A stretch of DNA of 64,000 nt, taken from contig JBHGAY010000005.1 of NCBI GenBank assembly GCA_041946735.1, forward strand, positions 64,001 to 128,000, read 5' to 3'. Below the pieces are notes generated by a model. It saw only the letters and a program-made list of their open reading frames with translations. It was not told where the DNA came from and did not search any database. The stretch is from Candidatus Eiseniibacteriota bacterium. GTDB lineage: Bacteria; Eisenbacteria; RBG-16-71-46; CAIMUX01; VGJL01. How positions within the stretch are numbered: position 1 is the stretch's first letter; each line of letters starts with the position of its first letter. The position numbers and the translations under genes were made by a program. Below, one piece after another: positions 10,874-48,629 of this stretch.

Positions 10874-11103
10874 GACCCCACTCCTTCCCACGCGAACGAC
10901 CCCGGGATCGCACGCGTCCGACCCATCACGTAGCGACGAACCGGTTCGGTGCCGGAACGCCGCCCCGCCTGGCGGCGGGACTACTCGCAACGAGACTAGC
11001 GAAACCGTTCTCGATCGGGAAGGGTGCAAAACCATTCATGATTTGCAGTATCCTCGCGCGCGTTGCGCCGGGCGGCGAGGACCGCAGGAGGGGAGGGCGC
11101 CGG

Positions 11104-19420: not shown

Positions 19421-19495
19421 GTTGCGTTCTCCTCCGGGCATCGTGACCAGGATCGAATCCGATGACCAAGCATTATACATGGCGGGCTGCCGAGT

Positions 19496-24068: not shown

Positions 24069-25436
24069 ATGCATCCAAACGGCTCGATTCGAATCCTGAT
24101 GTACTCGCACGATACCTTCGGGCTGGGGCACCTGACCCGCACCGTGCGTATCGCGCGAGCATTGCGGGCCCGTTACGGGACCGCTTCGATCCTCATTCTG
24201 ACCGGCTCCCCCGTGGCGACCTACATGCCGCTTCCCGAAGGCGCGGATCTCGTTAAGCTCCCGACGGTCGTCAAGGCAGGGGCGGAGCGCTACCGGGCCC
24301 GCGACCTCGAAGTGACCTTCGGCCAGGTGAAGCGTCTGCGTCGCGATCTGATACGGAGGGCGGCCGAGTCGTTCCGTCCTCACCTGTTCCTGGTCGACAA
24401 CGTCCCCCTCGGAATGAAGGGGGAGATCCTGCCCACCCTTCGATGGTTTCGGGCATCGAGTCCCGGAACGAAGATCGCGCTCGATCTTCGCGACATTCTC
24501 GACGATCCGTCGGTCATTCGCGAAGCCTGGCGCCGGGATGGAGTGCCGGAGGCGCTCGACAGCCTCTACGATCGCATCTTCGTTTTAGGGGACTCGGTCT
24601 TCTTCGACTCGGCAGCGGCCTACGACTTGCCGTCGTCGAAGACCGTCCATCTCGGGTACGGCACGCCGGAAGTGCGGGCATCGAAGCGGCCCGGAACGAA
24701 GAGGACCCGTGCGCCTCGAATTCTCCTCACCGTCGGAGGAGGCGGCGATGGCGCGGGGTTCCTGGAGCGGGCGCTCCTCGGCCTCTCGGACGGCGCTATC
24801 GACGAAGTGTCGGGGCGGCGGCCCCGGGCGTCGGCGCGGATCGAGGTCGTGACGGGTCCTCTCATGGATCCGGAGGGGAAGCGGCGGATCGCCGCACGGG
24901 CGATGCAGATTGGCGCGCTCGTTCACGAGTTCGTGCCCGATCTGCCGGCGCGGATGTCACGGGCCGACCTCGTCGTCGCGATGGCGGGATACAACACCTG
25001 CTGCGAGATCCTATCCCACGCCCGGGCCGCGCTCGTCGTGCCTCGCCGGACCCCGAGGATCGAGCAGCTCCTGCGCGCCGAGGCGTTCGAGCGCCGAGGT
25101 CTGGTTCGAGTCCTCCCCTCGATCGAATCGGAGCCGGGCGAGATCGCCGCCGCGATCCGGCGGGCCTTGGAGCAAGGCCCGTGGATCGACCAGGGGCAGA
25201 TGCCGGTGGTCGGCGGGTTCGCGCGACTCGCTGAGGAGGCGGGCTCGCTCTGCCCGGAGCTCGAGCGCCCGCCGGCGGTCGTGGTCTCGCAGCCCGCGCA
25301 ACGCGCGCGCGCCGCGCCCGCCCCATCCCCGCGGGGTGGGGGCGCAAGCGCGCCATCCACGGGCGGCCACGACGTGTGGCTCCGGCCGGGGACCTCGGCC
25401 CGCATCCCGGCGGGCTCGCGCCAGTCGGAATCCTGA
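24069..25436 (+). CDS. GT-B glycosyltransferase (COG4671-like, GT28-C-like C-terminus)
   Basis: MYSHDTFGLGHLTR, LVDNVPLG, LRDILD, TVGGGGDG, AMAGYNTCCE, EQLLRA. Confidence 0.88.
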   Translation: MHPNGSIRILMYSHDTFGLGHLTRTVRIARALRARYGTASILILTGSPVATYMPLPEGADLVKLPTVVKAGAERYRARDLEVTFGQVKRLRRDLIRRAAESFRPHLFLVDNVPLGMKGEILPTLRWFRASSPGTKIALDLRDILDDPSVIREAWRRDGVPEALDSLYDRIFVLGDSVFFDSAAAYDLPSSKTVHLGYGTPEVRASKRPGTKRTRAPRILLTVGGGGDGAGFLERALLGLSDGAIDEVSGRRPRASARIEVVTGPLMDPEGKRRIAARAMQIGALVHEFVPDLPARMSRADLVVAMAGYNTCCEILSHARAALVVPRRTPRIEQLLRAEAFERRGLVRVLPSIESEPGEIAAAIRRALEQGPWIDQGQMPVVGGFARLAEEAGSLCPELERPPAVVVSQPAQRARAAPAPSPRGGGASAPSTGGHDVWLRPGTSARIPAGSRQSES

Positions 25437-25444
25437 GGACCGCC

Positions 25445-26602
25445 GTGCGTGACTCTCGAACCAAACGGAACGGCTCAGCGGCGCGCCTCTCGGTGTGCCT
25501 CTCGGCGGCCTTCTCGGCGGGCCATCTCTCGCCGGCGTTCTCGGCGGCCCGCCTCCGCGCTGGCTGCCTCGCGATCCTTCTCCTCGCGGGAGCTCTCCTC
25601 GGCGCGCCTGCCGGCTCGAGCGCCCGCTCCTCCCCGCTCCGTCCATCGTCCTGGGGAGGAGAAGTGGCTTTCGGCTGGGATTCGAATCTGCTTTCTTCGT
25701 CCACCGCCGAAACGCGGGCTTTCGACACCGGCGGAGGGGACTCCTTCTTCGCCGTCGATCGTCTGGAGGATGCGCGCGCCCGTGCCGGCTTCTGGGGTCG
25801 CTGGGAGGTGCCGTCGTTCTACAAGAGCCTTCGCATCGAGGGCTCGTACGAACGCTTCGAGGCGCTTCACGAGTCGATCGTCGGGTCGGGAGTGTATGCC
25901 ATCGGGCTGCGCCAGAAGCTCCCCGATGGATCGAGGATCGACCTGTCCGCTGCGTATTGTCCCCAGATCTATCTCCGTCACCGGACGAACAAGGAAGCCC
26001 TCCCGGGCGAGCCGCAATTCCGTCCGGAGGCGTCGCGCCAGATGGAGCTGGAGATCGCGCACTCCCGGCCTTTCGCCGGCACGCGCCTGGAGGCTTCGAT
26101 CGACTACGAGACCGAACGGAGGATTCGCTGGTTCCGCGAACGGGACGAAGAGACGTGGACCGCCGGCCTCAATGTCGAAGTGCCCCTCGTCTCGTCGATC
26201 GATCTCATCGGCGCCGGGTTCGTCGGAGGCAGCCGCACCGTGGCGCCGAATCGCGAGCCTGGGCTCGACCGCTCCCATCGGCAGGCGATCACCGGGCTGC
26301 GCCTGAGCGCCGAGCCGGGCCTGCCGGCCGGTCCCTGGGAGATGCAGGCGGGCACCCGGTGGAAGTTCCGCGACTACACGACAGACGATCCGACCGACTC
26401 GAGCCGCTATCACCGCAACGACCGGATCGTCAGCTGGGATGTTCGCATCGGCCGTCCCATGGGCGCATTCGTTCCCTTCGTCTCCTACGAAGGGAGCTTG
26501 CGCCGGGTGCATCTGCCGTCCGGGGCACAATCCTCCAACGAGGAGGGGGAGTATGACGACACCCTGATCTCGCTCGGGGTGCAATGGGAGTTCTCAAGGT
26601 GA
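25445..26602 (+). CDS. Putative outer-membrane beta-barrel protein
   Basis: Signal-like N-terminus, GWDSNL, alternating aromatic/polar strands, C-terminal SLGVQWEF; GTG start inferred. Confidence 0.65.
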   Translation: MRDSRTKRNGSAARLSVCLSAAFSAGHLSPAFSAARLRAGCLAILLLAGALLGAPAGSSARSSPLRPSSWGGEVAFGWDSNLLSSSTAETRAFDTGGGDSFFAVDRLEDARARAGFWGRWEVPSFYKSLRIEGSYERFEALHESIVGSGVYAIGLRQKLPDGSRIDLSAAYCPQIYLRHRTNKEALPGEPQFRPEASRQMELEIAHSRPFAGTRLEASIDYETERRIRWFRERDEETWTAGLNVEVPLVSSIDLIGAGFVGGSRTVAPNREPGLDRSHRQAITGLRLSAEPGLPAGPWEMQAGTRWKFRDYTTDDPTDSSRYHRNDRIVSWDVRIGRPMGAFVPFVSYEGSLRRVHLPSGAQSSNEEGEYDDTLISLGVQWEFSR

Positions 26603-28089
26603 TTCAAAGGAAAGGCAACGGTTGCGCGCTGCGCATCGCTCCGAGGTCGCAGCCTCTCCGCGCGGTCCTTCTCGCCGTCCTGCTCTCCTCGATCGCGGGG
26701 ATGGCGGCACCCCTCAGGGCGTCGCTCGATTCGGGAAGCTGGCCGATGTTCCATCGCGATGCGGGCCACACGGGGCTTTCTCCCCTCCTCGCACCGGAGA
26801 TCGGCGTCATCGCCTGGACGAGATCGCTGAGCGACACGGTGGAGTTCTCCTCCCCCGCCGTCACATCGTCGGCGACGGTTTTGGTCGGTGACCAGGGAAA
26901 GGAGCTTTGGGCGTTCGATCTGTGGGGGAACGAGCGCTGGAACTACCACGCGCTCGGGAACATCCGCTACAGCAGCCCGGCAGTCAGGTCCAACGGGACG
27001 GTCTACTTCGGGGCGGGAGACGGCAAACTCTACGCGGTCTGGCCGAGCGGACGCCTGGCTTGGAGCGTGCAAACAGGCGCAGCCGTGAAGACATCCCCGG
27101 CGATCGCGCCCGATGGGACGATCTACGCCGGCAGCGACGATGGCAGTCTCTGGGCCGTTCGCGCCGACGGATCGGTCAAGTTCACGTTCGCGACCGGCGA
27201 CACCGTCCGCTCCTCGCCCGCCCTGGCAGCGGACGGCACCATCGTCTTCGGATCGCATGACGGGATGGTGAGAGCGCTTTGGCCCAATGGCAGCCTTCGC
27301 TGGGAGGTGGCTACGGGCGGCCCGATCAAGACCGCGCCCGCGATCCGGCAGAACCATGTCATCGTCGCGTCGTCCGATGGCTTCCTCTACGACTTCTCGA
27401 TCGACGGGACGTTCAACTGGGCGACCTACACCGGGAACAATCTCCGCTCCTCGCCTGCATTCGGCTCCACCGGGAAGATCTACCTGGGCGTCGACACGAA
27501 GATCTCCTGCTTCCACGACGACGGGAGCCCCTCGTTCTCTTACGAGACCGGAGCGAAGATCTACTCCTCGCCCGCCGTAACTTCCGACTACGACGGCCAG
27601 GACATTGTCCTCTGCGGCTCGGACAGCGGGTACCTCTACGCGGTCAAAGCGGGCACGCTCCTCTGGTCGTGCAACTTGGGAGCGCCGGTCCGCTCCTCGC
27701 CCGCGATCGGACCGAACCGGATCGCCTACGTGGGAGCCATGAACGGCAACCTCTACGCGATCGGGTACGTGAATCCCGCCTCCGCCGGCGGCGACGCCGC
27801 CACTTCGACGGTAGGCCTCGCCCTCAGCCCCAACCCCGTCCGAGGCGACTCGCCCGTTTCGATCCACCTGCTCGATCCGCGGGGGGCGGGTCGGCTCGGG
27901 GACGCGCCGATCCTGATCCTCGATCCTTCCGGACGAAGGATCCGTTCGCTTCAGGCTGCGGCGGGGGAGGGGATCGCCGTGTGGGACGGCCGGGACATGG
28001 CCGGCCGGCGAGTGCCGGCGGGAGTCTACTGGATCCGTGTCGGCGAGCTCGATCGACGGACGAGCACGCGTCTCGTCCGGATACCTTGA
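26599..28089 (+). CDS. Secreted PQQ/BamB-like beta-propeller protein with FlgD-Ig/CTD-like domain
   Basis: WPMFHRDAGHTG, about 8 SSPA..GTIYxGSxDGxLYA repeats, C-terminal SPNP..WDGRDMAG..PAGVYW; GTGA overlap with the previous stop. Confidence 0.88.
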   Translation: MIQRKGNGCALRIAPRSQPLRAVLLAVLLSSIAGMAAPLRASLDSGSWPMFHRDAGHTGLSPLLAPEIGVIAWTRSLSDTVEFSSPAVTSSATVLVGDQGKELWAFDLWGNERWNYHALGNIRYSSPAVRSNGTVYFGAGDGKLYAVWPSGRLAWSVQTGAAVKTSPAIAPDGTIYAGSDDGSLWAVRADGSVKFTFATGDTVRSSPALAADGTIVFGSHDGMVRALWPNGSLRWEVATGGPIKTAPAIRQNHVIVASSDGFLYDFSIDGTFNWATYTGNNLRSSPAFGSTGKIYLGVDTKISCFHDDGSPSFSYETGAKIYSSPAVTSDYDGQDIVLCGSDSGYLYAVKAGTLLWSCNLGAPVRSSPAIGPNRIAYVGAMNGNLYAIGYVNPASAGGDAATSTVGLALSPNPVRGDSPVSIHLLDPRGAGRLGDAPILILDPSGRRIRSLQAAAGEGIAVWDGRDMAGRRVPAGVYWIRVGELDRRTSTRLVRIP

Positions 28090-28105
28090 GGCATGATTTG
28101 AGGCG

Positions 28106-28813
28106 ATGAAGAGAATCGTTCCATCTCTCGCGGCCCTCCTGCTCCTGCCGGTCCTCGGCTGCTCGCCCGACCTGCGGGAGGAGCTGGGCCCCATCGTTCC
28201 GTTTCCGAACGTTCAGGGCACGGTCGTACGGGCCGGCGCCCCGGCCGAGGGGCTGAAAGTGAGGCTCCTCGAAACGGCGACCGATTCGGCGAGGAGCGAG
28301 GACCGAACGGCGCCAGACGGCCGCTACGCATTCAGCGAGGTGGGAGCGGGGGAGTGGACTCTGGAAGCGCGCTCGAACGACCCTGCCGACTTCTCGAGCG
28401 TGACCTATCCATTTGCGTTCGGGACTCCGGACACCTCGCTCGAGGCCCCGCCGCTCGAGATGTCGTTGCGCGGTCTCGCGCTTGGCTCGCCCGCCGACGG
28501 AGACACCTTGCCTGTGGCGAGTCCCGCAGCCCCGCTCACCTTCTCCTGGATCGCGCCGCAGCTTCCTCCGCAGGTCCAGGGCGTGACGATCCAGGTGCGC
28601 GTCTATGACGGTCAGGGCGATCCGGTCTGGTATTCCGAGAAGGTCGGCGCGGCGAGCGTCCGCTGGAACGGCCTGCAGAACCGGGGATCGGGGACGAACC
28701 GGCCGGCCTCGCCCGGCGCCTACAGCTGGAAGCTCCGGATGGAGATCGATGGCTCGGTGATCGAATGGACCACCTCCCGCCGGTCGTTCCTCTTCTCGGA
28801 GTCGATCCCATGA
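28106..28813 (+). CDS. Lipoprotein with carboxypeptidase-regulatory-like and FlgD-like domains
   Basis: Lipobox VLGC; TAPDGRYAFSEV..GEWTL; VRWNG..PGAYSWKL. Confidence 0.75.
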   Translation: MKRIVPSLAALLLLPVLGCSPDLREELGPIVPFPNVQGTVVRAGAPAEGLKVRLLETATDSARSEDRTAPDGRYAFSEVGAGEWTLEARSNDPADFSSVTYPFAFGTPDTSLEAPPLEMSLRGLALGSPADGDTLPVASPAAPLTFSWIAPQLPPQVQGVTIQVRVYDGQGDPVWYSEKVGAASVRWNGLQNRGSGTNRPASPGAYSWKLRMEIDGSVIEWTTSRRSFLFSESIP

Positions 28814-31800
28814 GCCCGGTGCCAGGAGATGATCGGGGGAGAGGACCGATCGCGTATGTCGTGAAGATGTTTCCCCGACTCTCGGAGACATTCGTCACAA
28901 ATGAGCTTCTCGAGCTGAAGCGCCGCGGCCTCGACGTGCGGGTGCTTTCGCTGCTCCCGCCGACCGGCGCCGTCCAGTCGGAAGAGTCTCGCGCGCTGCT
29001 CGCGGATACGATCCAGGTGCCTCACTACCGGAACGGAACCGGGTTCGCTTCCCTCGTCCGATCGCATCGCCGTCTCTTGCGCCGGGATGCCGGCCGCTAT
29101 CTGCGGACCTTTGGGCTCGTCGCGCGCCGGTTTTCGGGATCTGCCTGGAAGAGGTTCCTGCAGGCGGGCGCTGTGGCGGAATGGTGCTTGGACAACGAGG
29201 TCCGACACCTGCATGCCGGCTTCGCCCACGTTCCCGCCAGCGTCGTCTGGTGGGCGAGCCGCCTGACCGGGATTCCATGGAGCTTTGCCGCTCATGCGAA
29301 GGACCTCTACCTCTCGGATCGTCGATCGCTTCGCAACAAGATGGACGCTGCCCGCTTCGTGTGGACCTGCACGGAAGCGAACGGCCGCTACCTCCGATCG
29401 CTGGGCAGCGCGACGGATGTCCACGTCGGGTATCACGGAGTCGACCTGGAGCGTTTCGGCCCGCCGCTTCACCCGACGTCTCGCGAAGGGTCAGGGTCCC
29501 GAGCGGGCGGTGCATCGATGGGCGACGGGCCGCCCACGATCCTCGCCGTCGGGCGGCTCGTCCCGAAGAAAGGCTTCGACGACCTGCTTCGCGCGGCCGC
29601 GATCCTGCAGGAGAAGCGGCTGGACTTCCGTCTCGTCTTCGTCGGCGATGGACCGCAGCGCGGCCCCCTGACGGACCTCGCCGGTCGCCTCGGCGTCGCG
29701 GGTCGCGCGCGGTTTCTCGGGAGCCTGCCTCCCGATCAGGTCAGCCGGGAATATGCGGGCGCCCGGCTGCTCGTGCTCCCTTCCATCGTCCTCGACAATG
29801 GGGACCGCGACGGAATCCCCAACGTCCTCGTGGAAGCGATGGCGATGGGGGTGCCGGTCGTCAGCACCCGGGTCTCGGCCATCCCCGAGCTGATCCGCGA
29901 CGGCGAAAACGGTCTGCTCGTCGATCCGGGCGCTCCGGCGCAGCTCGCGCGCGCGATCGACGCGGTGCTGGAGGATGCGCCGGCCGCGGCAGGCCGGGCG
30001 GCGCGCGCTCGCCTCGACGTGGCCGAGCGGTTCGATCTTCATGCGAACAGCGGAGCTCTGGCCGAACTGCTTCGCCGCCACTGCAGAGCGACGCGCGCTC
30101 TGTACGTGAGCGCCGACCTGGGAGTGCCGGTCCGGGGACACAAGGGCGCCTCGGCCCACGTCCGCGCGATCGCCAACGGTCTCGTGGAGGCGGGCCTCGC
30201 CGTGCGCGTCGTGACTCCATCGGCTGGCGAGGAGGCTTCGGAGGGCGGGAATCGATTCGACCCCCCCATCGACATCGTCTCCTGCCCTCGGTGGGCCGGC
30301 GCCCTCGTTGACCGCTCCCGGGAGCGCCGGTCTCTCTACGCATGGGCCAAAGAGGTGAGGCGCCTCGCATGGAACGGCCCGATGCATCGCCGGGTGCAGC
30401 AACTGCTCTCCGACTTCCGCCCCGACTTCGTGTACGAGCGCTATTCGCTCTGCTCGATCGCGACCGGACTCGCGTGCCGTCGCCGCCGGGTCCCATGGCT
30501 CCTCGAGGTCAACGCCCCGCTGGCGGATGAGGAGGCGGCGTATCGCGGGCTTCGGTTCCGGTGGCTGACGCGGCGACTCGAGCGCTGGATCCTCCGCCAT
30601 GCCGACCACGTATTTGTGGTCTCGCACCCGCTCCGGAGATGGGCTCTCGATGCCGGCGTATCTCCCGAGCGGTTGTCGGTCCTTCCGAATGCGGTCGACA
30701 CCGGGCTCTTCCGTCCCGGCGTCCCGGGCGTTGTCGAGAGGCGCCGCTCGTGGGAGTGGAGCGAAGAGGAGATCATCGTTGGCTTCGCTGGCTCCCTCAA
30801 GCCATGGCACGGAGGAGCTCTGCTGCTCGCCGCGTTCGAGCGCGCCATGGAAAGGGATCCGCGCCTCCGCCTCTGCATCATCGGGGACGGTCCGGAGAGG
30901 AAGGAGATCGAAAGGCGTGCGCGGCGCCGCGGCCTCGCCTCCGTCGTCCGCCTGACCGGTGCGGTGCCTCAGCGGGAAGTTCCGTCCATGCTCCGGGCAT
31001 GCGACATCCTCGTCGCCCCGTACCTGCCGCAGCCGAACCCCTACTTCTCGCCGCTGAAGGTCCTCGAGTATCTCGCCGTCGGGCGGCCCGTCCTCGCTTC
31101 CCGGATCGCGGACCTACCGGACCTCGTCACACCGGAATGCGGTCTTCTCCTCCCTCCCGGGGATCGTGCGGCTCTGCGCGATGCGATCCTCGACCTCGCC
31201 CGAGACCCGCGTCGGCGTGAGGCGATGGGGAAGGCGGCCGCCGACCGCGCGGCTCGCGAGGATTGGTCGGGCCGGGTCCGAACGATTCTCCTCGAGGCGC
31301 GACAGCGGCGGAGCGGCGGCGCGGCCCGGCCGCCCGCCACGTCGACGCGCGTCGCCTACGTGCTCAAGATGTTTCCCCGCTTCTCGGAGACTTTCATCGT
31401 CTCGGAGATCGTCGAGCTGGAGCGCCAGGGGCTCGAGATCCGCGTCTTCTCGATGAAGCAGCCGGCAGGCCGGCGGCAGGACGATGTGGACCGGGTCCGA
31501 GCGCGGGTGAGCGTGCTGCCGTGCGGCCTGGCCGCCCGCGGCGCGGTCCCCGCCGCCATCCGATGCCTGATCCACCATCCGCGCGGCTCGTTCCGCGCCT
31601 TCCGTTTCGCCGTCGGGCGCCGCGACCACCGGGCGCTCGTCAAGCTGTGGCAGGCGGCATTCGTCGCCGACCGCTCGCGGCGCGAGGGGATCGGGCACCT
31701 CCATGCGCACTTCGCGAGCGGTCCGACGCGAGTCGCGAAGCTCGCCTCGATGATCAGCGGGATTCCGTTCTCCTTCACGGCGCATGCGAAGGATCTCTAC

Positions 31801-32823
31801 TGGAGCGGGCACCAGCACACCGAGAGCCACAAGCTGAAGAAGCGGGTGAAGCTCGCGCGTTTCGTCGTCTCGGTCAGCAAGCGCAACGAGGACTTCCTCG
31901 GCAGCCTCGGATTCAGGGTCAAGGAGGGGAGGATCCGGACGATCTATCTCGGGCTGCGCCTCGAGGAGTTCCCCTTCGTGCCCCCCTCGGCCCGTCCGTC
32001 CGTTCGAGTGCCTCTGATTCTCGCGGTCGGGCGCCTGGTCGAGAAGAAGGGATTCCATCCGCTGATCGAAGCTTTGGCAACGTTGCGCGACCGTGGGGTC
32101 GCGTTTCGATGCATCGTGGCCGGTGAGGGTCCGGAGAAGGACCGGCTGCAGGATCGAATCCGAACGGCGCGGCTCGCCGGTCGGGTCCGTCTGGCAGGAC
32201 CGGTGCCTTTGACTCGCCTGAAGAGCCGTCTTTACCCCGCCGCGCGCGTCCTGGCGCAGCCATGCGTCGTAAGCGGCGACGGGGACCAGGACGGGATCCC
32301 CATCGTGCTCATGGAGGCGATGGCGAGCGGCCTGCCAATCGTCTCCACGCGCGTTTCGGGGATCCCTGAAGCGATCGAGGACGGGGTGGAAGGATTTCTG
32401 ACCGAGCCGGGGGACGTCGAGGCCCTCGCCGGCCGGATCGAACAGCTCCTCACGCGCCCCATCCTCGCGGAGCGGATCGCGCACGCCGCCCGGGCGCGGG
32501 CGGAGCGGCAGTTCAACCTGCACGCCAACGTCGGGTCGTTGCGGAAGCTGTTTCTTCGATCGCTCGCGGGATGGCCCGCCCCCGCTGTGCCGCCAGGGAT
32601 CTCCCGGCCGGCCGAACGATCCGAAGCGGGAGCGGAAGCGGGAATCGCGCCATCCGGGATCTTCGTGCCCGAGGAGGAGACCGCGCCGGCGCAGGCCGCC
32701 CCGGCGCAGGCACGGGGCGGCTGCGTGTCCGCCGCCGTTCCGGCCCATGCCGAGGCGGCTCTCCTCGCCGGCGCTCCTTGCGAGGCGCGCGGACAGTCCA
32801 CCGCCTCCCGGGCCGGCTCATGA
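28810..32823 (+). CDS. Triple GT4 glycosyltransferase fusion
   Basis: Three complete GT-B modules in one frame, with signatures RDGIPNVLVEAMA, FSPLKVLEYLA and QDGIPIVLMEAMA; ATGA overlaps at both ends. Confidence 0.92.
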   Translation: MSPVPGDDRGRGPIAYVVKMFPRLSETFVTNELLELKRRGLDVRVLSLLPPTGAVQSEESRALLADTIQVPHYRNGTGFASLVRSHRRLLRRDAGRYLRTFGLVARRFSGSAWKRFLQAGAVAEWCLDNEVRHLHAGFAHVPASVVWWASRLTGIPWSFAAHAKDLYLSDRRSLRNKMDAARFVWTCTEANGRYLRSLGSATDVHVGYHGVDLERFGPPLHPTSREGSGSRAGGASMGDGPPTILAVGRLVPKKGFDDLLRAAAILQEKRLDFRLVFVGDGPQRGPLTDLAGRLGVAGRARFLGSLPPDQVSREYAGARLLVLPSIVLDNGDRDGIPNVLVEAMAMGVPVVSTRVSAIPELIRDGENGLLVDPGAPAQLARAIDAVLEDAPAAAGRAARARLDVAERFDLHANSGALAELLRRHCRATRALYVSADLGVPVRGHKGASAHVRAIANGLVEAGLAVRVVTPSAGEEASEGGNRFDPPIDIVSCPRWAGALVDRSRERRSLYAWAKEVRRLAWNGPMHRRVQQLLSDFRPDFVYERYSLCSIATGLACRRRRVPWLLEVNAPLADEEAAYRGLRFRWLTRRLERWILRHADHVFVVSHPLRRWALDAGVSPERLSVLPNAVDTGLFRPGVPGVVERRRSWEWSEEEIIVGFAGSLKPWHGGALLLAAFERAMERDPRLRLCIIGDGPERKEIERRARRRGLASVVRLTGAVPQREVPSMLRACDILVAPYLPQPNPYFSPLKVLEYLAVGRPVLASRIADLPDLVTPECGLLLPPGDRAALRDAILDLARDPRRREAMGKAAADRAAREDWSGRVRTILLEARQRRSGGAARPPATSTRVAYVLKMFPRFSETFIVSEIVELERQGLEIRVFSMKQPAGRRQDDVDRVRARVSVLPCGLAARGAVPAAIRCLIHHPRGSFRAFRFAVGRRDHRALVKLWQAAFVADRSRREGIGHLHAHFASGPTRVAKLASMISGIPFSFTAHAKDLYWSGHQHTESHKLKKRVKLARFVVSVSKRNEDFLGSLGFRVKEGRIRTIYLGLRLEEFPFVPPSARPSVRVPLILAVGRLVEKKGFHPLIEALATLRDRGVAFRCIVAGEGPEKDRLQDRIRTARLAGRVRLAGPVPLTRLKSRLYPAARVLAQPCVVSGDGDQDGIPIVLMEAMASGLPIVSTRVSGIPEAIEDGVEGFLTEPGDVEALAGRIEQLLTRPILAERIAHAARARAERQFNLHANVGSLRKLFLRSLAGWPAPAVPPGISRPAERSEAGAEAGIAPSGIFVPEEETAPAQAAPAQARGGCVSAAVPAHAEAALLAGAPCEARGQSTASRAGS

Positions 32824-34697
32824 TCGCGACGGTGCGCCGGCGACTACGGGACTTGCGGCGCGCCCTGCGCCTTCAGAGCGAGTTCCGCGTCTATCTCCGC
32901 CCGCATCGTGGCCGGCTGGCGATCGTGATCCTGCTCTCGGCGCTGTACGCGTCGCTGCGTCTGCTCGAGCCGTGGCCGCTGCAGATCGTCTTCGATGGCG
33001 TCTTGCTGGGCAAGACAGTCCACTTCCTCGGCATCGACGTGCTGAAACTCGCGGGAGGGGATCGCGGGACGCTGCTCGCCCTCGGATCGCTCGCCTTGCT
33101 CGGGGTCGCGAGCCTCTCCGGTTTCGTCTACTACATCCAGAGCGTGATGATCGCGAGGATCGGGCAGGACGTGGTGCGATCGATGCGCGAGGACGTGTTC
33201 CATCAGCTGCAGCGCCTCTCCCTCCCGTTCCATCACCGCACCACCAGCGGCGACCTGCTGATGCGACTGACGGGCGACATGATCCTGCTGCGCGAGATGA
33301 TCCTGGCAAGCCTGGTCACTCTCGCGACGCAGATGCTCGTCCTGATCGCCGTCCTCGCTCTCATGCTGACGGTCAGCCCGCCGCTCACGCTCGTGGCGGT
33401 CGTGCTGGCTCCGCTGCTGTTCCTCCTGTTCCGCTCCTTCCGCACGAAGATGGTGGCGGCCGCTCGCGCGCAACGCCGCCGCGAGGGGTCGCTCGCTTCC
33501 TCGCTCGAGGAAGTGCTGCTCTCGATGCCGATGATCCAGGCGTACACCGCGGAGGCTCTCGAGGATGAGCGATTCCGGCACCTGTCGAAGAGGAGCGCGC
33601 GCGCGGGCCTGCGTGGCGCGCGTCTCGAGGCGGGCATGCAGCGGATGGTGGAGATCAGCGTGGCGCTCGGAACCTGTCTGGTCCTCTGGATCGGGGCGCG
33701 CCAGGTGCTGGGCGGCTCTCTGACGCCCGGAGAGTTCCTCGTCTTCCTCGCCTACCTGAGAACCCTCTATCGTCCGGTGCGCGGAATCGCGAAGGTGGCG
33801 GAGCGAACGGCGCGCGCTTCGGCCGCGGCGGAGAGGGTGCTGGAGATCCTCCGGGCGAAGAGGGAGACGCGCGACAGCAAGGATGCCGTCGTCGCCCCGC
33901 CCCTGCGGGGAGAGATCCGTTTCACGAACGTCGGCTTCACGTACGAGAACGGGACGACCGCGCTGCGGGACGTCAGCTTCCACATTCGGCCCGGGGAGCG
34001 GATCGCGCTGGTCGGGCCGACGGGCGCGGGGAAGTCCACCCTGTTCGCGCTGCTGCTCCGCTTCTACCGCCCGGCTTCGGGCCGGATCGAGATCGACGGC
34101 CGGAAGGTCCGGCACTATACCCTCGCGAGCCTGCGGCGTCAGATCACCCTTCTTCCGCAGGAGCCTTTCCTCGTCGCCGCCACGGTGCGCGAGAACCTGC
34201 TGTACGGCAAGCCCGAGGCGAGCGATGAGGAACTGATCCTCGCGCTCCGGGCCGCGGCCTTGGAGGACTGGTTCGCCTCGCTCCCGCATGGGCTCGACAC
34301 GAGGATCCAGTCCCGTGGCCAGTCCCTCTCGGGCGGGCAGCGTCAAAGGATCGCGATCGCCCGCGCGACCCTGAAGGACGCGCCGATTCTCCTGCTCGAC
34401 GAGCCGACGACGGGTCTCGACGCGAGGAGCGAGCGGGAGGTGCTCGACAGCCTCGATCGCTTGCTGCACCGCCGGACCACGATCACGATCGCGCATCGCT
34501 TCTCCACGTTTCGCGGAGCAGACCGGGTCCTCGTCCTCGATCGGGGAGAGCTGATCGAGGATGGCTCCCCGGATCGCCTGCTCGCCACCGATTCGCTGTT
34601 TCGAGTGCTTTCGGAGATCCAGGGGGTGGCCGCCTCCGGCACGAACGAAGGCAGGCCGTCCCAGGGACCCAGGGAGGGGACGGTATGGTGTCCATGA
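32820..34697 (+). CDS. ABC exporter, fused TMD-NBD (MsbA-like)
   Basis: TM domain, GPTGAGKST, LSGGQRQRIAIARA, LLLDEPT, IAHR. Confidence 0.95.
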   Translation: MIATVRRRLRDLRRALRLQSEFRVYLRPHRGRLAIVILLSALYASLRLLEPWPLQIVFDGVLLGKTVHFLGIDVLKLAGGDRGTLLALGSLALLGVASLSGFVYYIQSVMIARIGQDVVRSMREDVFHQLQRLSLPFHHRTTSGDLLMRLTGDMILLREMILASLVTLATQMLVLIAVLALMLTVSPPLTLVAVVLAPLLFLLFRSFRTKMVAAARAQRRREGSLASSLEEVLLSMPMIQAYTAEALEDERFRHLSKRSARAGLRGARLEAGMQRMVEISVALGTCLVLWIGARQVLGGSLTPGEFLVFLAYLRTLYRPVRGIAKVAERTARASAAAERVLEILRAKRETRDSKDAVVAPPLRGEIRFTNVGFTYENGTTALRDVSFHIRPGERIALVGPTGAGKSTLFALLLRFYRPASGRIEIDGRKVRHYTLASLRRQITLLPQEPFLVAATVRENLLYGKPEASDEELILALRAAALEDWFASLPHGLDTRIQSRGQSLSGGQRQRIAIARATLKDAPILLLDEPTTGLDARSEREVLDSLDRLLHRRTTITIAHRFSTFRGADRVLVLDRGELIEDGSPDRLLATDSLFRVLSEIQGVAASGTNEGRPSQGPREGTVWCP

Positions 34698-35854
34698 GGT
34701 TCCATCTGGAGGGAAGCCTGTCTCCCGATCCCGCGGTGCGAGGAGTGGAGCGGCTTCTGGAACCGGACGGGGCGCGGCGATTCGTGCGAGACCTGCGGGC
34801 GAACGGGATCGCGAGCCGGTCCGCACGCGTCCGCGCTGCCGTCGTCAAGCAACGGCCCGGCCAGCGCGCCGTCCTGCGGATCGAGGTGGAAGAAGGCGGA
34901 CCGGGAGATGGCAGCGATGCGGACATCACCCGGGACGAGGCAGTCGCGGTGTGGTACGCGAAGCTCTGCCGGTCCTCTTCGGCGTGGAAACGTCTCTACG
35001 ATCCCGGCCTCTTCGAGCTGGCGGACCGCGCCGCGCAGGCGGGTGTCCAGGTTCCGTTGCCGGTCGTCTGGCTCCCGCGCTTCCGGGCGCTCCTCACGAA
35101 GTACGCGCCGGGCACTCCTCTCGTCGGCATCCTCGGTACGGAGACTTCCGGCGACACGCTGGCGCAATTCGGGCTGGCGCTGGGACGCCTGCACCTGCTT
35201 CTCCCTTTGTGCGGCGAGGCGCGAGGCCCGGCGTTCGAGAGAGAGCAGATCCTTCATGCACGGGATCGCTACTTGAAGGACAACCGGCCGGAGCTGCTCG
35301 CCTCCTTCGACGAGAGGATGCGCGACTGGTGGGAGCAGCGTCCGGCGGAACTCGACGAAGCGGATCGCCCGCTCGTCTGTCTCCACGGGGACCTTCATCT
35401 CCGGCAGATCCTGTGCCGTGATCGGGACGAGGAGGCTTTCCCATTCGCGCTCCTCGACTGGGACAGCGTCTGTTCGGGGGATGCCGAGCGGGACGTGGCG
35501 AATCTCCTGGCGCATCTGCTGCTCGAGGCCGAAGCAGGACGCTGCCCGCGCGAGAAGTGCTACGCGGGGATCCGCCGCCTGCTCCATGGGTACGAGGCCG
35601 TTCGGTCCCTCGACCCTGCCCGCACGAACTGGTACCTGACGGGGACGCTGCTGCGCCTGGCCGCGCTCCACGCATCGCCCGTCTTCGGACCGATCACCCC
35701 TGTCCCGGCCTCACTCTCTCCGGCGATTCTCGCCGCCACGCGGAGGGTGGAGACGTTTGGCGGCGGGAACGGGATCGAAGGGTCCTCGGCACGCGAGACG
35801 CTCGAGAAAGGCGCGCCCTCGTGGCCGATAGGCAACGGTTCGGGTCTGTGCTAG
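34685..35854 (+). CDS. APH/choline kinase-like phosphotransferase
   Basis: WYAKL, LHGDLHLRQIL, LLDWD, GDAERDVANL. Confidence 0.85.
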   Translation: MVSMRFHLEGSLSPDPAVRGVERLLEPDGARRFVRDLRANGIASRSARVRAAVVKQRPGQRAVLRIEVEEGGPGDGSDADITRDEAVAVWYAKLCRSSSAWKRLYDPGLFELADRAAQAGVQVPLPVVWLPRFRALLTKYAPGTPLVGILGTETSGDTLAQFGLALGRLHLLLPLCGEARGPAFEREQILHARDRYLKDNRPELLASFDERMRDWWEQRPAELDEADRPLVCLHGDLHLRQILCRDRDEEAFPFALLDWDSVCSGDAERDVANLLAHLLLEAEAGRCPREKCYAGIRRLLHGYEAVRSLDPARTNWYLTGTLLRLAALHASPVFGPITPVPASLSPAILAATRRVETFGGGNGIEGSSARETLEKGAPSWPIGNGSGLC

Positions 35855-37143
35855 GCGGCTCGTGAGGCGCGCCGGTTTCGGATCGGCTCGCCCCGGAGCG
35901 AGCCGCCCCGGATCCCTTTCTCCTCGAGCAGCTCGTCGTAGAGCGCCTCGATGTCGCGTAGCAGGCGATCGGCGCCGAAGCGTTGCACGACCTTTGCGAC
36001 GTCCGAGCGTTCCGCGCGCTGCCCTGGACGATCGAGGTAGCGCCGCATCGCCGCGGCGAGAGCCCGCGGATCGCGATCGGCGACGAGCGTCGCCAGCGGA
36101 TAGCCGCGCACGATCTCCGGCACCCCACCCACGCTCGTGCAGACGACCGGGATGCCCGCCGCCATCGCTTCGATCACGGCGACCGGCGTCCCCTCGTTCT
36201 TCGAGGTGAGCAGCAGAAGGTCGAGATCGGCGAGGATTCGATCGAGATCGGTCCGGTAGCCGAGGAAGGTGATGCGTCCGGCAAGGCCGAGCGAACGCGC
36301 CTGCTCTTCGAGCGGCCCGCGTAGCGCGCCATCCCCGACGACGACGAACCGGACGGGATGGGGAAGCGTCTCGATGGCGGCCGACGCCGCCTGCAGAAGC
36401 AGGTCGGGGTTCTTCACATCCGTCAATCGTCCCACCCAACCGACCAGCCGTTCCCGTGCGCCCGCCCCGATCTCGGCCCGCAGCGAACGGCGCAGCGCGC
36501 TCGACGCGGCGAAGCGGGCGAGGTCCAACCCCAGCGGCACGACCCGCACCTTCTCGGGCGGGGCGACGCGATGCCGTTCGCACAGCTCGCGCTTCTGGCT
36601 CTCGGAGATCACGACGATCCGGTCGCTGACCGCCGCGAGCATCCGCTCCGCCTCGGTGAACGCCTGGCTGACCGGGGCTGCGAAATAGCCGTCGAGGACA
36701 TGTCCATGGAAGGTGTGGACGACGATCGGCACGCCGCACGCGCGCGCCGCAAGCCGGCCGAGGGCGCCGGCCTTCGCGGTATGCGTGTGGACGATCCAAG
36801 GCCGCTCCCGCCGGAAGATCCGGCAGAGATCGGCGAATGCGGCGACGTCGCGCACCGGATGGACGCTCCGGCGCATCCTACCAAGCCGGTGCGCCCGCAC
36901 GCCGATCGCCCGCGCCGCATCGAGGAGGTCCTTCTCGCCTGGCTCCGTCGCACCGCCGATCAGGACGGTCCGGAAGCGCGAGGGATTCAGCCGGGACGAG
37001 AGCAGGATCGTCTGCTGCGCCGGGCCGCCGACGCAGATCCGGCTCTGCACGCGGCAGATCGGAATCCGCCCGCCACGCTCGCTTCGCCCGCTCCGCCCGC
37101 TCCGGCCGCTCTTCTCGATCCGCCCGCTCCGCCCGCTCCTCAC
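35851..37143 (-). CDS. GT4 glycosyltransferase
   Basis: GGPAQQ, HTHTAKAGALGRLAA, VHTFHGH, NEGTPVAVIEAMAAG. Confidence 0.93.
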   Translation of the reverse strand: MRSGRSGRIEKSGRSGRSGRSERGGRIPICRVQSRICVGGPAQQTILLSSRLNPSRFRTVLIGGATEPGEKDLLDAARAIGVRAHRLGRMRRSVHPVRDVAAFADLCRIFRRERPWIVHTHTAKAGALGRLAARACGVPIVVHTFHGHVLDGYFAAPVSQAFTEAERMLAAVSDRIVVISESQKRELCERHRVAPPEKVRVVPLGLDLARFAASSALRRSLRAEIGAGARERLVGWVGRLTDVKNPDLLLQAASAAIETLPHPVRFVVVGDGALRGPLEEQARSLGLAGRITFLGYRTDLDRILADLDLLLLTSKNEGTPVAVIEAMAAGIPVVCTSVGGVPEIVRGYPLATLVADRDPRALAAAMRRYLDRPGQRAERSDVAKVVQRFGADRLLRDIEALYDELLEEKGIRGGSLRGEPIRNRRASRAA

Positions 37144-39560
37144 GCGGCGCGCCGCTCCCGGTCGCCGTCGGGCCGGGGCGATCCCGCGTGCTCCGCCGGC
37201 CGTCCCGAGCCGTTGCCGCCGTTGCCGCCATTGGTCCCGTGGGTCCCGTTGGCGCCATAGGCGCCGCTGGCCCCGCTGCCTGCCGCGCTTCCCCCGGTCG
37301 TCGCCTCGAGCAGGCGCCGTTCGGGACGGTGATAGTAATAGCCGCCGTAGCGCTTGCCGCCGATCGGCGCCGGGTCGGCGTTCCAGACCATCCCGGCGAT
37401 CGTGACGCCGAGCGACCGCAGCACCTGGCCGGCATGGGCGAGCGCCTCGCAGTCGCTATGGCGGGCCCGCACGACGAGGAGCGTCGCGTCCGCGGCCCCG
37501 CTCAGAATGCCGGTATCGGCGACCGGCAGGATCGGTGGCGCGTCGACGATCACATAGTCGTATGCGGCGCGCAGCTCCTCGAAGAGCGGAGCGAGGCGCG
37601 GACTCGTCAGCACGTCGTACGGATTCTCCGCGGGGCCGTCGAGGGCGAGGAGGCTCAGATTGTGCAAGCTGGTGGTTACGATCGCCTCGCCGGGACGGAT
37701 CCGGCCCACGAGCAGATCGACCAGGCCGTAGCGAGGACGCACGCGGAAGCGTCGCGCAACCTGCGGGCGGCGCAGGTCGGCGTCGACCAGGAGCACGCGC
37801 GAGCCGGCGCCGGCGAGGACGAGCGCGAGGTTGCAGGAGACCATCGTCTTGCCGTCGCCCAGCCCCGGGCTCGTGACGACGAGACATTTCGCCTCGGGAC
37901 CGGACTGCCGCACGAGCGCGAGCCGCAGCGAGCGGAAGGCCTCGACCGTCCGTGACCAGGGATTCATCGCGAGGATGAGCGAGCCGGAGGCGACGAGAAG
38001 CTTGCGCTTGCGGCGGAGCCGCGCGCGCCGGATCGGTCCCGCCTTGAGCTGGACCGCCCATTCCTTCAGATCGGTTGTGGCGATCGCGGGGATCCGGCCG
38101 GTCGCGGCGAGCCCCGAGAGGCGCGACGCCTCGTGCACCGACTGGACGCGGTGGTGCAGGCGATCGGCGAGCAGGCAGGCGAAGGTGGCGACGATCCCGC
38201 CGAGCAGAACCCCGAAGAACAGGTTGAGCCGCCAATCGGGCCGCACGGGGAATCTCGGGACCGAGGCCCGGTCGATGATCCGCGCCGTTCCGACCATCCC
38301 CGCCTCCTCGATCCGCGCCTCCTCGTAGCGCTGGAGGAGCATCGCGAGGATCTTCTGATCGACCTCCGCGTTGTAGGCGAGTTGCCCCATCCGATACGAC
38401 TTCTCCGGCACGCCGGCGAGGCGGCGCGCGTGCTCGTCCATCGATCCCTTCAGCGCCTCGACGCGTGCCTGCAGCGCGCTCGTCTCCACCTCCTCGACGA
38501 GGATCTGGTCGAGGAGGTCCTCGAACTGCGCGAGCGGATCGAACGGCAGGTCCTTCCCCTTGACGACCTCGCCCACCGTCGCGGCGAGCCGTGCGCGGAT
38601 CTCCCCGATCTCCGCCTCCAGCTCCTGCATTTTCGGATGGTCGGGGTCGTAGCCTTGCGCGAGGAACTTCTCGCGATAGGTCATGCGATCGGCCAGCTCG
38701 GCGCGAAGCTGGTTCACGATCGGCCCGGTCACGACCGGGATCTCGTCGGCGAGGCGGGACTGCGCGGCGTCGAGCCGGCCCTGCAGCAGGCGCAGCCGCT
38801 CCTGATGGGCGAGCAGGTCGGCGCGCGCCTGGTTGTAGGAGACCTCGAACGTCGAAACCTGCTCGACGAGCGCGCGCGTCTCGTCCTCGAGGCTCGCGAC
38901 GTTCGACTGCCGCCGCACGTCGCGCAGGCTCGTCTCGCTCCCCTGCAGGCGGTCGCGGACGAGCGCGACCTGCTCGGCGAGGAACTCGCGGACGCGCCGC
39001 ACCTCGGAGCGGGCGCGGTCGCCGGAGATCTCGATGTAGACGTCGGCGCAGGCGTTGGCGATCCCCGCCGCCTCGCGCGGCGTGGATGCCTGCGCGCGGA
39101 TCTCGACGACGTCGGAGCCTTGGAGGGGCCGGATCGTCGTGTGATCGAGGATCCAGGCGGCGCGCAGGAGCGAATCGGCCGGAAGGCCCGGAAGGCCCGG
39201 AAGGCCTCGAAGGCTCGGAAGTTTCCGATGGCTCCGACCAGCCCCAAGGCTCGCGTCGTTGCCGGGATCGTCCGAGGCGAGGCGGCGCGCGACCGCGGCG
39301 GCGAGCGCGCGGCTGCGAAGCGTCTGGATCTCGTTGTTCGTGTCGGAGCGCGGCTGGAACGGGTTCTGCCCCGTGACGAGACTGATCTGATCCTGCGCCT
39401 GGTTCGTGTCGAGCAGGACGGCCGTCTTCGCCTCGAAGACCGGCGGCATCCGCCAGGTCACGAGCACCACGATCGCGAGGAAGGCGAGGAAGACTCCGGC
39501 AAAGAGCGCTTTCCTCTCGACGAGGATCCTTCCGATTCCTGGCGCGGTCTCCTGACTCAT
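37140..39560 (-). CDS. wzc: Polysaccharide co-polymerase / tyrosine autokinase
   Basis: Two TM segments around a coiled coil, EAFRSLR, SPGLGDGKT, VDADLRRP, IVDAPP, C-terminal YGGYYY. Confidence 0.93.
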   Translation of the reverse strand: MSQETAPGIGRILVERKALFAGVFLAFLAIVVLVTWRMPPVFEAKTAVLLDTNQAQDQISLVTGQNPFQPRSDTNNEIQTLRSRALAAAVARRLASDDPGNDASLGAGRSHRKLPSLRGLPGLPGLPADSLLRAAWILDHTTIRPLQGSDVVEIRAQASTPREAAGIANACADVYIEISGDRARSEVRRVREFLAEQVALVRDRLQGSETSLRDVRRQSNVASLEDETRALVEQVSTFEVSYNQARADLLAHQERLRLLQGRLDAAQSRLADEIPVVTGPIVNQLRAELADRMTYREKFLAQGYDPDHPKMQELEAEIGEIRARLAATVGEVVKGKDLPFDPLAQFEDLLDQILVEEVETSALQARVEALKGSMDEHARRLAGVPEKSYRMGQLAYNAEVDQKILAMLLQRYEEARIEEAGMVGTARIIDRASVPRFPVRPDWRLNLFFGVLLGGIVATFACLLADRLHHRVQSVHEASRLSGLAATGRIPAIATTDLKEWAVQLKAGPIRRARLRRKRKLLVASGSLILAMNPWSRTVEAFRSLRLALVRQSGPEAKCLVVTSPGLGDGKTMVSCNLALVLAGAGSRVLLVDADLRRPQVARRFRVRPRYGLVDLLVGRIRPGEAIVTTSLHNLSLLALDGPAENPYDVLTSPRLAPLFEELRAAYDYVIVDAPPILPVADTGILSGAADATLLVVRARHSDCEALAHAGQVLRSLGVTIAGMVWNADPAPIGGKRYGGYYYHRPERRLLEATTGGSAAGSGASGAYGANGTHGTNGGNGGNGSGRPAEHAGSPRPDGDRERRAA

Positions 39561-48235: not shown

Positions 48236-48629
48236 GCTCCTCCCGGACGTCCTGGCCGGAACGGCCATCCGCCCGCGCGCGAGCGACCCGTCGGGCCGCG
48301 CCGACGGCGCAGCCAGGGCGTTCCTCCCCGGCCCTCTTGGCCGGGGCGCGCGGTTTCCTCTCCTCCCCTGGTTTCGGCAGATCGGCCGGGCGAGAACATC
48401 CGAAAGAAATCGACGGTTGCGACCGAACGCAACGGATTGCGCGCCGCTTCCCGGACCTCAAGGAGCGGACGATTCCACCGATAGTGTGAGGGAGTGGACT
48501 TCCCGGGAGGGAATGCCGGGGGCCACGGCAGGAAGCATCGAGGAAAGGAAGGTTCGAGGAGAGGATCCGAGGACCCCGGATGGGGAGCGGCCGCGAGGGA
48601 CGAAGGATGGCGAGGGTTTGGCCGGTGGC

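Follow-up and report, generated by a model that had tools for sequence, protein, structure and literature searches.

Organisation of the locus

The 64,000-nt stretch of DNA analysed here, referred to below as the window, covers positions 64,001–128,000 of contig JBHGAY010000005.1 (assembly GCA_041946735.1) of Candidatus Eisenbacteria, an uncultured soil bacterium with a genome of 4.9 Mb, 94.8% complete. The G+C content of the window is about 69%, and the closest relatives of its genes are found in metagenome-assembled genomes (MAGs) labelled Candidatus Eisenbacteria. Seven plus-strand genes, g1–g7, lie between positions 24069 and 35854 and make up a candidate operon for an envelope glycan; all seven are present where an earlier note, made from the sequence without database searches, had placed them. 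The genes are as follows.

24069..25436, plus strand: g1, GT-B glycosyltransferase (GT), GT1/GT28-like, with a Glyco_tran_28_C domain; probable first transferase on a lipophilic acceptor
25493..26602, plus strand: g2, secreted outer-membrane beta-barrel of an unnamed family, 14-stranded in its model; start uncertain (GTG 25493 or 25445; longest open reading frame (ORF) 25376–26602)
26584..28089, plus strand: g3, secreted PQQ/BamB-like beta-propeller with a type IX secretion-type C-terminal tail
28106..28813, plus strand: g4, lipoprotein with a CarboxypepD_reg-like domain and a second beta-sandwich; predicted barrel partner
28810..32823, plus strand: g5, three GT4 modules (a, b, a′) in one polypeptide (longest ORF from 28765, 1352 aa)
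about 32820..34697, plus strand: g6, half-size ATP-binding cassette (ABC) exporter with fused membrane and ATPase domains (ABCB/MsbA/PglK architecture)
34685..35854, plus strand: g7, APH-type small-molecule kinase

The genes are closely spaced. If g2 starts at 25493, a gap of 56 nt separates it from g1; g2 and g3 overlap by 19 nt and a 16-nt gap lies between g3 and g4. The g4/g5 overlap is 49 nt from ATG 28765 or 4 nt from ATG 28810, that of g5 and g6 is 4 nt with ATG 32820, and g6 and g7 overlap by 13 nt, or by 4 nt with ATG 34694. The last 4 nt of g7, at its stop codon, are shared with the end of a convergent GT4 gene. The seven closely coupled genes named in the earlier note are thus borne out one by one, with overlaps of 4–49 nt and gaps of 16–56 nt. 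Six of the seven frames pass a filter based on third-codon-position G+C content (GC3); g7 fails it but has a Pfam match and conserved homologues.

An Rfam scan of the 15–50 kb part of the window found no RNA family, promoter and terminator scans gave no signal above chance and no RNA sequencing run is listed as carrying the operon. The contigs of one sequencing run carry the whole stretch, and this run may be its source. Near-identical pieces are present in two runs of other studies, with no insertions or deletions reported; no listed piece from an independent run spans the g1/g2 junction.

The g1 transferase and single-frame transferase–barrel genes

Protein g1 belongs to the Glyco_tran_28_C domain family (36.7 bits against a Pfam cut-off of 22). 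Its AlphaFold2 (AF2) model has a GT-B fold with a predicted local distance difference test (pLDDT) value of 85.5, and the top Foldseek matches of this model are the GT1 enzymes CalG1, kitacinnamycin glycosyltransferase and OleD. By its modelled structure, g1 is closest to GT1 transferases acting on lipophilic small molecules. An assignment to MurG was rejected: TIGR01133 gives 29.3 bits against a cut-off of 250, and the top structural matches are GT1 enzymes, not MurG. Sequence searches of the PDB with g1 or g7 alone returned marginal matches only. The g1 family is large, with at least 546 relatives confirmed among at least 599 candidate stretches of genome contigs.

A sample of 151 genomes of the phylum was searched for the g1 transferase, the g2 barrel and PorV. 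The transferase was found in 39 of them and the barrel in 27; in 11 of these 27, the transferase match and the barrel match share one open-frame length. At the DNA level, the g1 and g2 parts form one open frame in the homologous loci L002, L003, L004 and L005 (in L096, the frame spans 8663–11050), and in the window, L001, L097 and L098 they lie in different frames. About ten representative proteins of 756–818 aa carry both parts (P0007, P0009, P0012, P0013 and P0038, for example). In each, a complete g1-type transferase comes first, then a low-complexity linker and a stretch that is basic at first, hydrophobic afterwards and in most cases closed by small residues; the barrel follows. The basic-then-hydrophobic stretch is present in all ten linkers examined of full-length fused proteins.

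The fusion of transferase and barrel, as read from the sequences, is strong evidence that both proteins work together. Free proteins of the g2 family are about 350 residues long and have a classical signal peptide. In the fused proteins, the hydrophobic stretch lies only about ten residues ahead of the first barrel strand, and it may therefore act as an internal signal sequence that is cut. Such cleavage would free the barrel and leave the transferase anchored in the membrane; we know of no precedent for the processing of a transferase–barrel protein by an internal signal sequence.

The barrel and its predicted lipoprotein partner

No Pfam or NCBIfam family is matched by g2. Its N-terminus resembles a signal peptide and the protein ends in WEF-SR. 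The AF2 model comprises a signal helix followed by 14 strands (pLDDT 69.4; predicted template-modelling score (pTM) 0.67). The best Foldseek matches are OmpG and CymA, both 14-strand channels, followed by porins and autotransporter barrels, with PgaA (4y25) at rank 14; the Foldseek probability to OmpG and CymA is 1.00, and the target-normalised TM score reaches 0.63. On this model, g2 has the properties of an outer-membrane beta-barrel. An exhaustive search placed 476 representative proteins in the family at E ≤ 0.001 and 199 at E ≤ 1e-10, against only three proteins found by a word-based search. The family was also compared with Alginate_exp (AlgE), and this assignment was rejected, since there is no Pfam match and hhalign gives a probability of 1.2% against an E. 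coli Alginate_exp protein.

Protein g4 contains a CarboxypepD_reg domain (PF13620, 33.1 bits). A lipobox, L-G-C, occupies residues 17–19, and Cys19 is invariant in all eight aligned homologues; g4 therefore has the sequence characteristics of a bacterial lipoprotein.

When mature g2 and mature g4 were modelled as a complex, scores of 0.62, 0.63 and 0.62 were obtained, and all three controls scored 0.00. The 0.62 mark is reached by 116 of 157 solved complexes versus 2 of 215 mismatched pairs, the score being the model's own confidence with custom alignments and only roughly calibrated. Contacts in the complex model agree to at least 94%, and the pLDDT of the partner is 89. The modelled interface joins barrel residues 157–180 to lipoprotein residues 20–34, which directly follow the lipobox cysteine; these stretches contain most of the invariant columns of both alignments. 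The invariant interface residues are G28, P29, V31, P32, P34 and N35 in g4 and P157, Q158, Y160, R162, H163, R164, G172, P174, F176, R177, P178 and E179 in g2. The complex model supports, but does not show, the binding of g4 to g2.

The propeller and type IX secretion

Protein g3 has a signal peptide and matches Beta-prop_ACSF4 (PF13570) with 162.5 bits and PQQ_2 (PF13360) with 79.5 bits. Its tail scores 24.4 bits with FlgD_ig, just below the cut-off of 27, and is 39% identical over 77 residues (E 2e-11) to the tail of an S8 protease encoded upstream of the operon. A weak match to the C-terminus of PorZ was also found; no match to TIGR04183 was found in g3 at E ≤ 0.01. The genome encodes SprA_N, two PorV-like proteins, 16 C25 peptidases and 40 Por_Secre_tail matches; GldM_1st was not found in this 94.8% complete genome. 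Tails of the FlgD_ig type give at least 150 matches in the genome (249 candidates), so the tail on g3 is not specific, and g3 probably belongs to a very large set of type IX cargo proteins. A second PQQ-type propeller with an FlgD_ig tail (36.6 bits) is encoded on the minus strand at 62670–63968 of the window; it is not a close paralogue of g3, being missed by tblastn with g3 at E ≤ 1e-10.

A glycan that serves as a surface anchor for tail-bearing secreted proteins, like the anionic lipopolysaccharide (LPS) of Porphyromonas gingivalis, would accord with the tail that the S8 protease and g3 have in common and with the SprA_N, PorV-like and C25 peptidase genes of the genome. PorZ is a beta-propeller protein with a type IX-type tail, and g3, with its weak match to the C-terminal part of PorZ, would then be a PorZ-like delivery protein. 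This explanation is very improbable, however: PorV is present in all 151 sampled genomes (one of them, G019, unpublished) against 39 for the transferase and 27 for the barrel, and tails as numerous as these make that of g3 unspecific. Type IX secretion, moreover, is not known from the E. coli, Rhizobium and Sulfuriferula carriers of the enzyme core described below.

The GT4 transferase, the exporter and the kinase

Three stretches of Glycos_transf_1 (PF00534/PF13692) were identified in g5, and its modules a and c (a′) are 39% identical. The protein aligns as a single frame over 1264–1337 aa with its counterparts in L097, L098, L096, L001 and L003. The NCBIfam model for EpsE gives 407 bits against a cut-off of 400, but this value is a sum over three modules and was not counted.

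Exporter g6 contains ABC_membrane (PF00664, 144.6 bits) and ABC_tran (PF00005, 129.6 bits) in one chain, as in a fused half-transporter, and matches the MsbA and TM287/288 chains in the PDB. It was not identified as MsbA: TIGR02203 gives 427 bits against a cut-off of 602, and g6 ranks only fourth in the genome, where an MsbA-like gene on contig C56 that ranks above it scores 549 bits. A score below the MsbA cut-off and this fourth rank fit a dedicated exporter. A transporter of the Wzm/Wzt or KpsMT type was rejected as well, as the operon contains no separate ABC-2 permease and ATPase and g6 is of the ABC_membrane type. It shares 35% identity over 588 aa with the exporter of a plasmid-borne E. 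coli cluster (see below).

Kinase g7 matches APH (PF01636) with 61.6 bits against a cut-off of 23.2. Residues H234, D236, Q241, D258 and D260, which we take to be those of the catalytic loop and the metal-binding Asp, are invariant in seven of seven aligned sequences. The g7 profile matches capreomycin and macrolide phosphotransferases, glucosamine kinase and maltokinase and does not match protein kinases; a look-up in the Atlas returned APH clusters only. The sequence thus places g7 in the APH family, and, since its profile matches sugar and antibiotic kinases, it is a small-molecule kinase, most likely one acting on a sugar hydroxyl. The identity with the second phosphotransferase of the E. 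coli cluster is 25% over 280 aa (E 7e-9).

Conservation of the operon and recurrence of the enzyme core

The full g1–g7 order is found in four other Eisenbacteria loci, L001, L002 (= L096), L097 and L098, and this recurrence of the same seven genes shows that the operon is more than a chance arrangement. The contigs of L004 and L008 end inside the operon; L005, from a Binatia MAG, has g1 and g2 and then reaches the contig end.

A census of the enzyme core was made on the best 80 of the at least 546 g1-related loci. In 66 of the 80, a GT4 gene of the g5a/c type starts no more than 600 nt past the end of the g1 homologue; eight loci have no GT4 gene on the g1 strand, six of these being at contig ends. 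In L001–L004, the g2–g4 cassette puts 3.3–4.2 kb between the g1 homologue and the GT4 gene, which agrees with the description of the outer-membrane genes in the earlier note as inserted. A full-length exporter of the g6 type follows in L006, L007, L011, L014, L015 and the E. coli plasmid. A search with a g7 profile hidden Markov model of 83 loci found kinase ORFs in nine, belonging to five lineages: five Eisenbacteria loci, L007, L009, L011 and the E. coli plasmid. A 303-aa gene after the Sulfuriferula exporter was considered and is not a relative of g7. The complete core of GT, GT4, ABC exporter and kinase is seen in E. coli plasmids, Ignavibacteriales, Vicinamibacterales and one betaproteobacterial fragment. 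The recurrent core named in the earlier note therefore does occur in several phyla, with the correction that its kinase is optional.

Two subtypes of the core can be distinguished. The window falls in subtype A, which is characterised by two GT4 genes and an exporter of about 600 residues; the carriers of this subtype are Vicinamibacterales (L006, L007), Ignavibacteriales (L011), Sulfuriferula (L014, L015), Gemmatimonadota (L075) and E. coli plasmids, and it is to subtype A that the core with a kinase, as given in the earlier note, applies. Subtype B occurs in alphaproteobacteria and also in Granulosicoccus; its exporter has 904 residues, and cyclic-nucleotide regulators, an Opp-like importer and a second GT28-like gene are part of the cluster. 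In Rhizobium etli CIAT 652, the first two genes of subtype B are annotated as redA and redB.

The E. coli cluster L111 (NZ_AP025748.1, 131–141 kb) consists of eight genes in one direction: a GT28-like gene, two GT4 genes, an ABC exporter, two APH-type kinases, an Alginate_exp barrel and a nucleotide-sugar dehydrogenase. Of 5426 complete E. coli genomes, 18 carry it, in every case on a plasmid and with generic annotation only. The cluster adjoins an IS630 transposase on large IncF plasmids, the hosts of which come from cattle, food, a pig and a person.

Unrelated barrel families next to the core

Four types of barrel are encoded beside the core: the g2 family, Alginate_exp, BBP2 and a combination of CarboxypepD_reg and OMP_b-brl_4. 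An Alginate_exp barrel follows the kinases in the E. coli plasmids and in L011 of Ignavibacteriales, and a BBP2-type barrel precedes the GT gene in Sulfuriferula. In L006 of Vicinamibacterales, an 858-residue CarboxypepD_reg and OMP_b-brl_4 protein is encoded exactly between the GT and GT4 genes, the same position as that of the Eisenbacteria cassette. Profile comparisons found g2 unrelated to the Sulfuriferula and E. coli barrels. The core thus recurs with interchangeable barrels, and this repeated recruitment suggests that its product crosses the outer membrane, having to pass or enter it. The linkage of outer-membrane genes to the core elsewhere, on which the earlier note had staked its proposal beforehand, is found both as GT–barrel fusions and as unrelated barrels in other lineages.

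A DUF5666 domain heads the Alginate_exp barrel in L011 (18340–20151) and the g2-family barrel in the metagenome protein P0028; the same accessory domain is thus present on two unrelated barrels.

The barrel, propeller and lipoprotein might alternatively be an unrelated outer-membrane cassette, for nutrient uptake, for example, that has come to lie inside a glycan operon. The best structural matches of the barrel are the uptake channels OmpG and CymA, and the cassette is missing from most carriers of the core, as would be expected in such a case. We consider this extremely unlikely, however, given that GT and barrel form one open frame in 11 genomes and that three other lineages combine the core with unrelated barrels, in one case at the identical position.

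The main rival to export through the barrel is a membrane glycolipid. In this case, g1 would act on diacylglycerol or another lipid, the GT4 modules would add a short head group, the kinase would phosphorylate it and g6 would flip the product, which would be retained in the envelope; the barrel–lipoprotein pair would insert it in the outer leaflet or serve otherwise. The GT28 family also includes diacylglycerol glycosyltransferases. The fold of g1 is nearest to GT1 enzymes acting on lipophilic small molecules, its Pfam domain is common to MurG-type enzymes with lipid acceptors, g6 has the architecture of lipid flippases (MsbA, PglK) and the operon has no priming transferase; all these features favour a glycolipid. 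Against it, the Alginate_exp barrels and the UDP-glucose/GDP-mannose dehydrogenase beside the core in E. coli plasmids and Ignavibacteriales point to a soluble anionic polymer, and the operon contains no gene for a lipid-transport bridge. A glycolipid therefore appears unlikely, and export of a glycan through the barrel is the reading preferred here.

Comparison with known systems

In E. coli O8/O9a O-antigen synthesis (WbdA, WbdB, WbdC, WbdD, Wzm/Wzt), GT4 enzymes, including a multi-module polymerase, assemble the chain, the end of which is the target of a kinase with the APH/protein-kinase fold, and export proceeds through an ABC transporter without Wzx/Wzy. The operon shares with this system the cytoplasmic GT4 assembly, a multi-module GT4 protein, a kinase and ABC export without Wzx/Wzy. 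It differs in that its exporter is a fused half-transporter instead of a Wzm/Wzt pair, in that it has neither a WecA-type primer gene nor a methyltransferase and in that a private barrel–lipoprotein pair takes the place of lipid A ligation and the Lpt route.

In the AlgE–AlgK, PgaA–PgaB and PelB–PelC systems, a barrel and a lipoprotein partner pass an exopolysaccharide through the outer membrane. The resemblance to these synthase-dependent pairs lies in the combination of a barrel with a lipoprotein and in the Alginate_exp barrels beside the same core elsewhere. In contrast to them, g2 has 14 modelled strands and is unrelated to Alginate_exp, and the inner-membrane step is that of an ABC exporter rather than of a synthase controlled by cyclic di-GMP. 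The assembly of the LPS core (the GT4 enzyme WaaG, the kinases WaaP and WaaY, and MsbA) likewise combines GT4 enzymes and sugar kinases with an MsbA-type flippase acting on a lipid-anchored oligosaccharide. The differences are that g6 scores below the MsbA cut-off and that the operon is patchy in the phylum and plasmid-borne in E. coli, unlike an essential core pathway.

Among clusters that carry g1 homologues, the E. coli plasmid cluster is the closest full analogue, having transferases, an exporter, kinases and a barrel; its GT4 genes are separate, however, its barrel is of the Alginate_exp type and it has no propeller or lipoprotein. The redA/redB cluster of R. etli CIAT 652 (RHECIAT_PA0000037–40) begins with RedA, a homologue of g1 (33–37% identity across rhizobial and related alphaproteobacterial loci), followed by a GT4 gene (redB) and an ABC exporter. 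The second GT28-like gene, the 904-residue exporter, the Opp-type importer and the cyclic-nucleotide regulators set this subtype apart from the operon, as does the lack of a kinase and a barrel.

In the msbA2 operon of Sinorhizobium meliloti (SMb21188–SMb21191), glycosyltransferase genes are described as sharing a transcript with the gene of an MsbA-like exporter, whose polysaccharide substrate has an unknown structure (PMC3687685, PMC12239276); the operon opens with an acyltransferase at about 938 kb of pSymB (PMC3687685). It was considered as the rhizobial homologue and rejected, since the same source and a homologue search put it at a different locus (PMC3687685); it is a functional analogue only. 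The g1 homologue of S. meliloti lies in a separate cluster that also encodes a Crp-like regulator, an adenylate cyclase, an Opp-like importer and a second GT28-like protein.

A literature search found no paper on COG4671, on Rhizobium redA/redB, on the E. coli cluster or on Eisenbacteria glycosyltransferases of this kind. All parts of the system are of known kinds and their combination is undescribed; we regard it as a variant of ABC-exporter-dependent glycan export.

Neighbouring loci

The genes flanking the operon lie outside the conserved unit. They are as follows.

17861..19480, minus strand: S8 protease with a secretion tail
19496..22417, minus strand: tetratricopeptide repeat (TPR)–CHAT protein
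22436 to about 23140, minus strand: anti-sigma-like protein
23134 to about 23886 (longest ORF to 24162), minus strand: extracytoplasmic function (ECF) sigma factor
35851..49913: Wzx/Wzy-type locus; on the minus strand, GT4, Wzc-like, three GT4-type genes, GT2, Wzy_C and Wzx; on the plus strand, a WecA/MraY-type transferase at 48201–49913

The S8 gene lies upstream in three of the seven loci with upstream sequence (the window, L001 and L097), and the CHAT and anti-sigma genes in the window and L001; within 8–10 kb upstream in L096, L098, L003 and L004, neither S8 nor CHAT/anti-sigma was found. A second anti-sigma/TPR-CHAT/S8 set is located at about 174–180 kb on contig C34, far from any g1 gene, its members being 30%, 50% and 52% identical to those of the window; no second copy of the ECF sigma gene was found in the genome at E ≤ 1e-10. 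These scattered neighbours and the copy on C34 without an operon mean that the association of S8, CHAT and sigma with the operon is loose. In the conservation analysis suggested by the earlier note, the seven-gene order thus holds in four other loci and the link to S8/CHAT/sigma is weak. The attachment of the product to tail-bearing proteins such as S8, also suggested there, is not supported, given the generic nature of the tail, PorV being far more widespread than the transferase or the barrel, the presence of S8 at three of seven loci and the C34 module. The anti-sigma/CHAT/S8 set looks like an independent module, recurrent and serving in signalling or as a protease system.

No priming transferase, Wzx or Wzy is present among g1–g7, as the earlier note had stated; all three kinds are encoded within 13 kb, in the convergent and divergent genes of the neighbouring locus. 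It had also called the operon self-contained, which is true of the operon itself but not of its surroundings, where a WecA/MraY-type transferase, Wzx, Wzy_C and Wzc adjoin. In three relatives, the 13 kb downstream of the operon contains no homologue of any ORF of the window (E ≤ 1e-15, >80 bits), and Wzc-like matches in the genomes of these relatives are weak or on other contigs. Since the neighbour is not kept in the three relatives, the Wzx/Wzy locus is outside the conserved unit.

The proximity of this locus raises the question of whether the operon is a side branch of a Wzx/Wzy or LPS pathway, in which the WecA-type enzyme at 48201–49913 primes and the operon supplies an alternative chain. 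The adjoining GT4s, Wzc, GT2, Wzy_C, Wzx and WecA/MraY-type transferase, with the g7 stop codon overlapping the first of these genes, speak for such a branch. Its absence downstream in the relatives, where Wzc-like matches are weak or elsewhere, speaks against it, as does the fact that Rhizobium, Sulfuriferula and E. coli plasmids carry the core with no such locus beside it; a side branch is very improbable.

Within 35851–54038, the Wzx/Wzy-type locus is complete and precedes genes for NeuB and a cytidylyltransferase, a pair that points to a nonulosonic-acid sugar. Elsewhere in the window, 10876–15960 encodes an S8 protease of 1403 residues that contains TPR repeats and a TPPII Ig-like domain; the gene directly after it specifies a small protein with an SLBB domain, weakly similar to polysaccharide export proteins. 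A NamZ-type exo-beta-N-acetylmuramidase with both domains is encoded at 59225–60628, near polysaccharide genes.

Proposed pathway and its significance

With slightly better than even confidence, we propose that the seven genes form one operon for a Wzx/Wzy-independent envelope glycan that is assembled in the cytoplasm, phosphorylated, exported by an ABC exporter and passed on through the barrel–lipoprotein pair. At the cytoplasmic face, g1 would put the first sugar on a lipophilic acceptor, which may be a lipid or a polyprenol carrier. The fused GT4 modules of g5 would extend the chain to a defined oligosaccharide or a repeating polymer, and g7 would phosphorylate a sugar hydroxyl, either as a decoration or as a chain-end cap. 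The half-size exporter g6 would then move the product across the inner membrane, and the g2 barrel bound to g4, as suggested in part by the models, would take it through or into the outer membrane. Propeller g3 would reach the surface by type IX secretion and may bind or trim the product.

The identities of the genes, their coupling and conservation, the modelled barrel fold and the recurrence of the core with interchangeable barrels are shown by the data; the product and its acceptor, the length of the chain, the function of the phosphate, the direction of transport and the function of g3 are inferred. Several points weigh against this proposal. The operon contains no gene for sugar-nucleotide synthesis. 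The neighbouring WecA-type transferase could supply a carrier-linked primer, in which case the operon need not be autonomous here. Confidence in the barrel model is only moderate, as its pLDDT indicates, and the model was built on nine sequences; judged by its fold, a 14-strand barrel could equally be an uptake porin, like OmpG and CymA, and the calibration of the complex score is rough. Locus L003 lacks the propeller alone of the seven genes, and the kinase, missing from 74 of the 83 loci, is not needed for the chemistry of the core.

In a wider form of the proposal, the core with an interchangeable barrel would be an undescribed general route of glycan secretion beside the Wzx/Wzy, Wzm/Wzt–KpsMT and synthase routes. 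In about two-fifths of the barrel-bearing Eisenbacteria, the transferase and the barrel would be made as a polyprotein; an internal signal sequence would send the barrel over the inner membrane and signal peptidase would free it, leaving the transferase tail-anchored at the export site. This wider form is possible but doubtful.

Surface glycans shape biofilms, recognition by phages and the immune system, and soil aggregation, and the known routes of their export are few. The core considered here is unstudied, spans several phyla and rides on conjugative E. coli plasmids from cattle, food and people, so its product and export path can be tested in a tractable host. If processed as proposed, the single-frame transferase–barrel genes would represent an unusual coupling of a cytoplasmic enzyme to an outer-membrane channel. 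Within the uncultured phylum Eisenbacteria, the operon is a marker of an accessory surface trait, present in some families and not in others.

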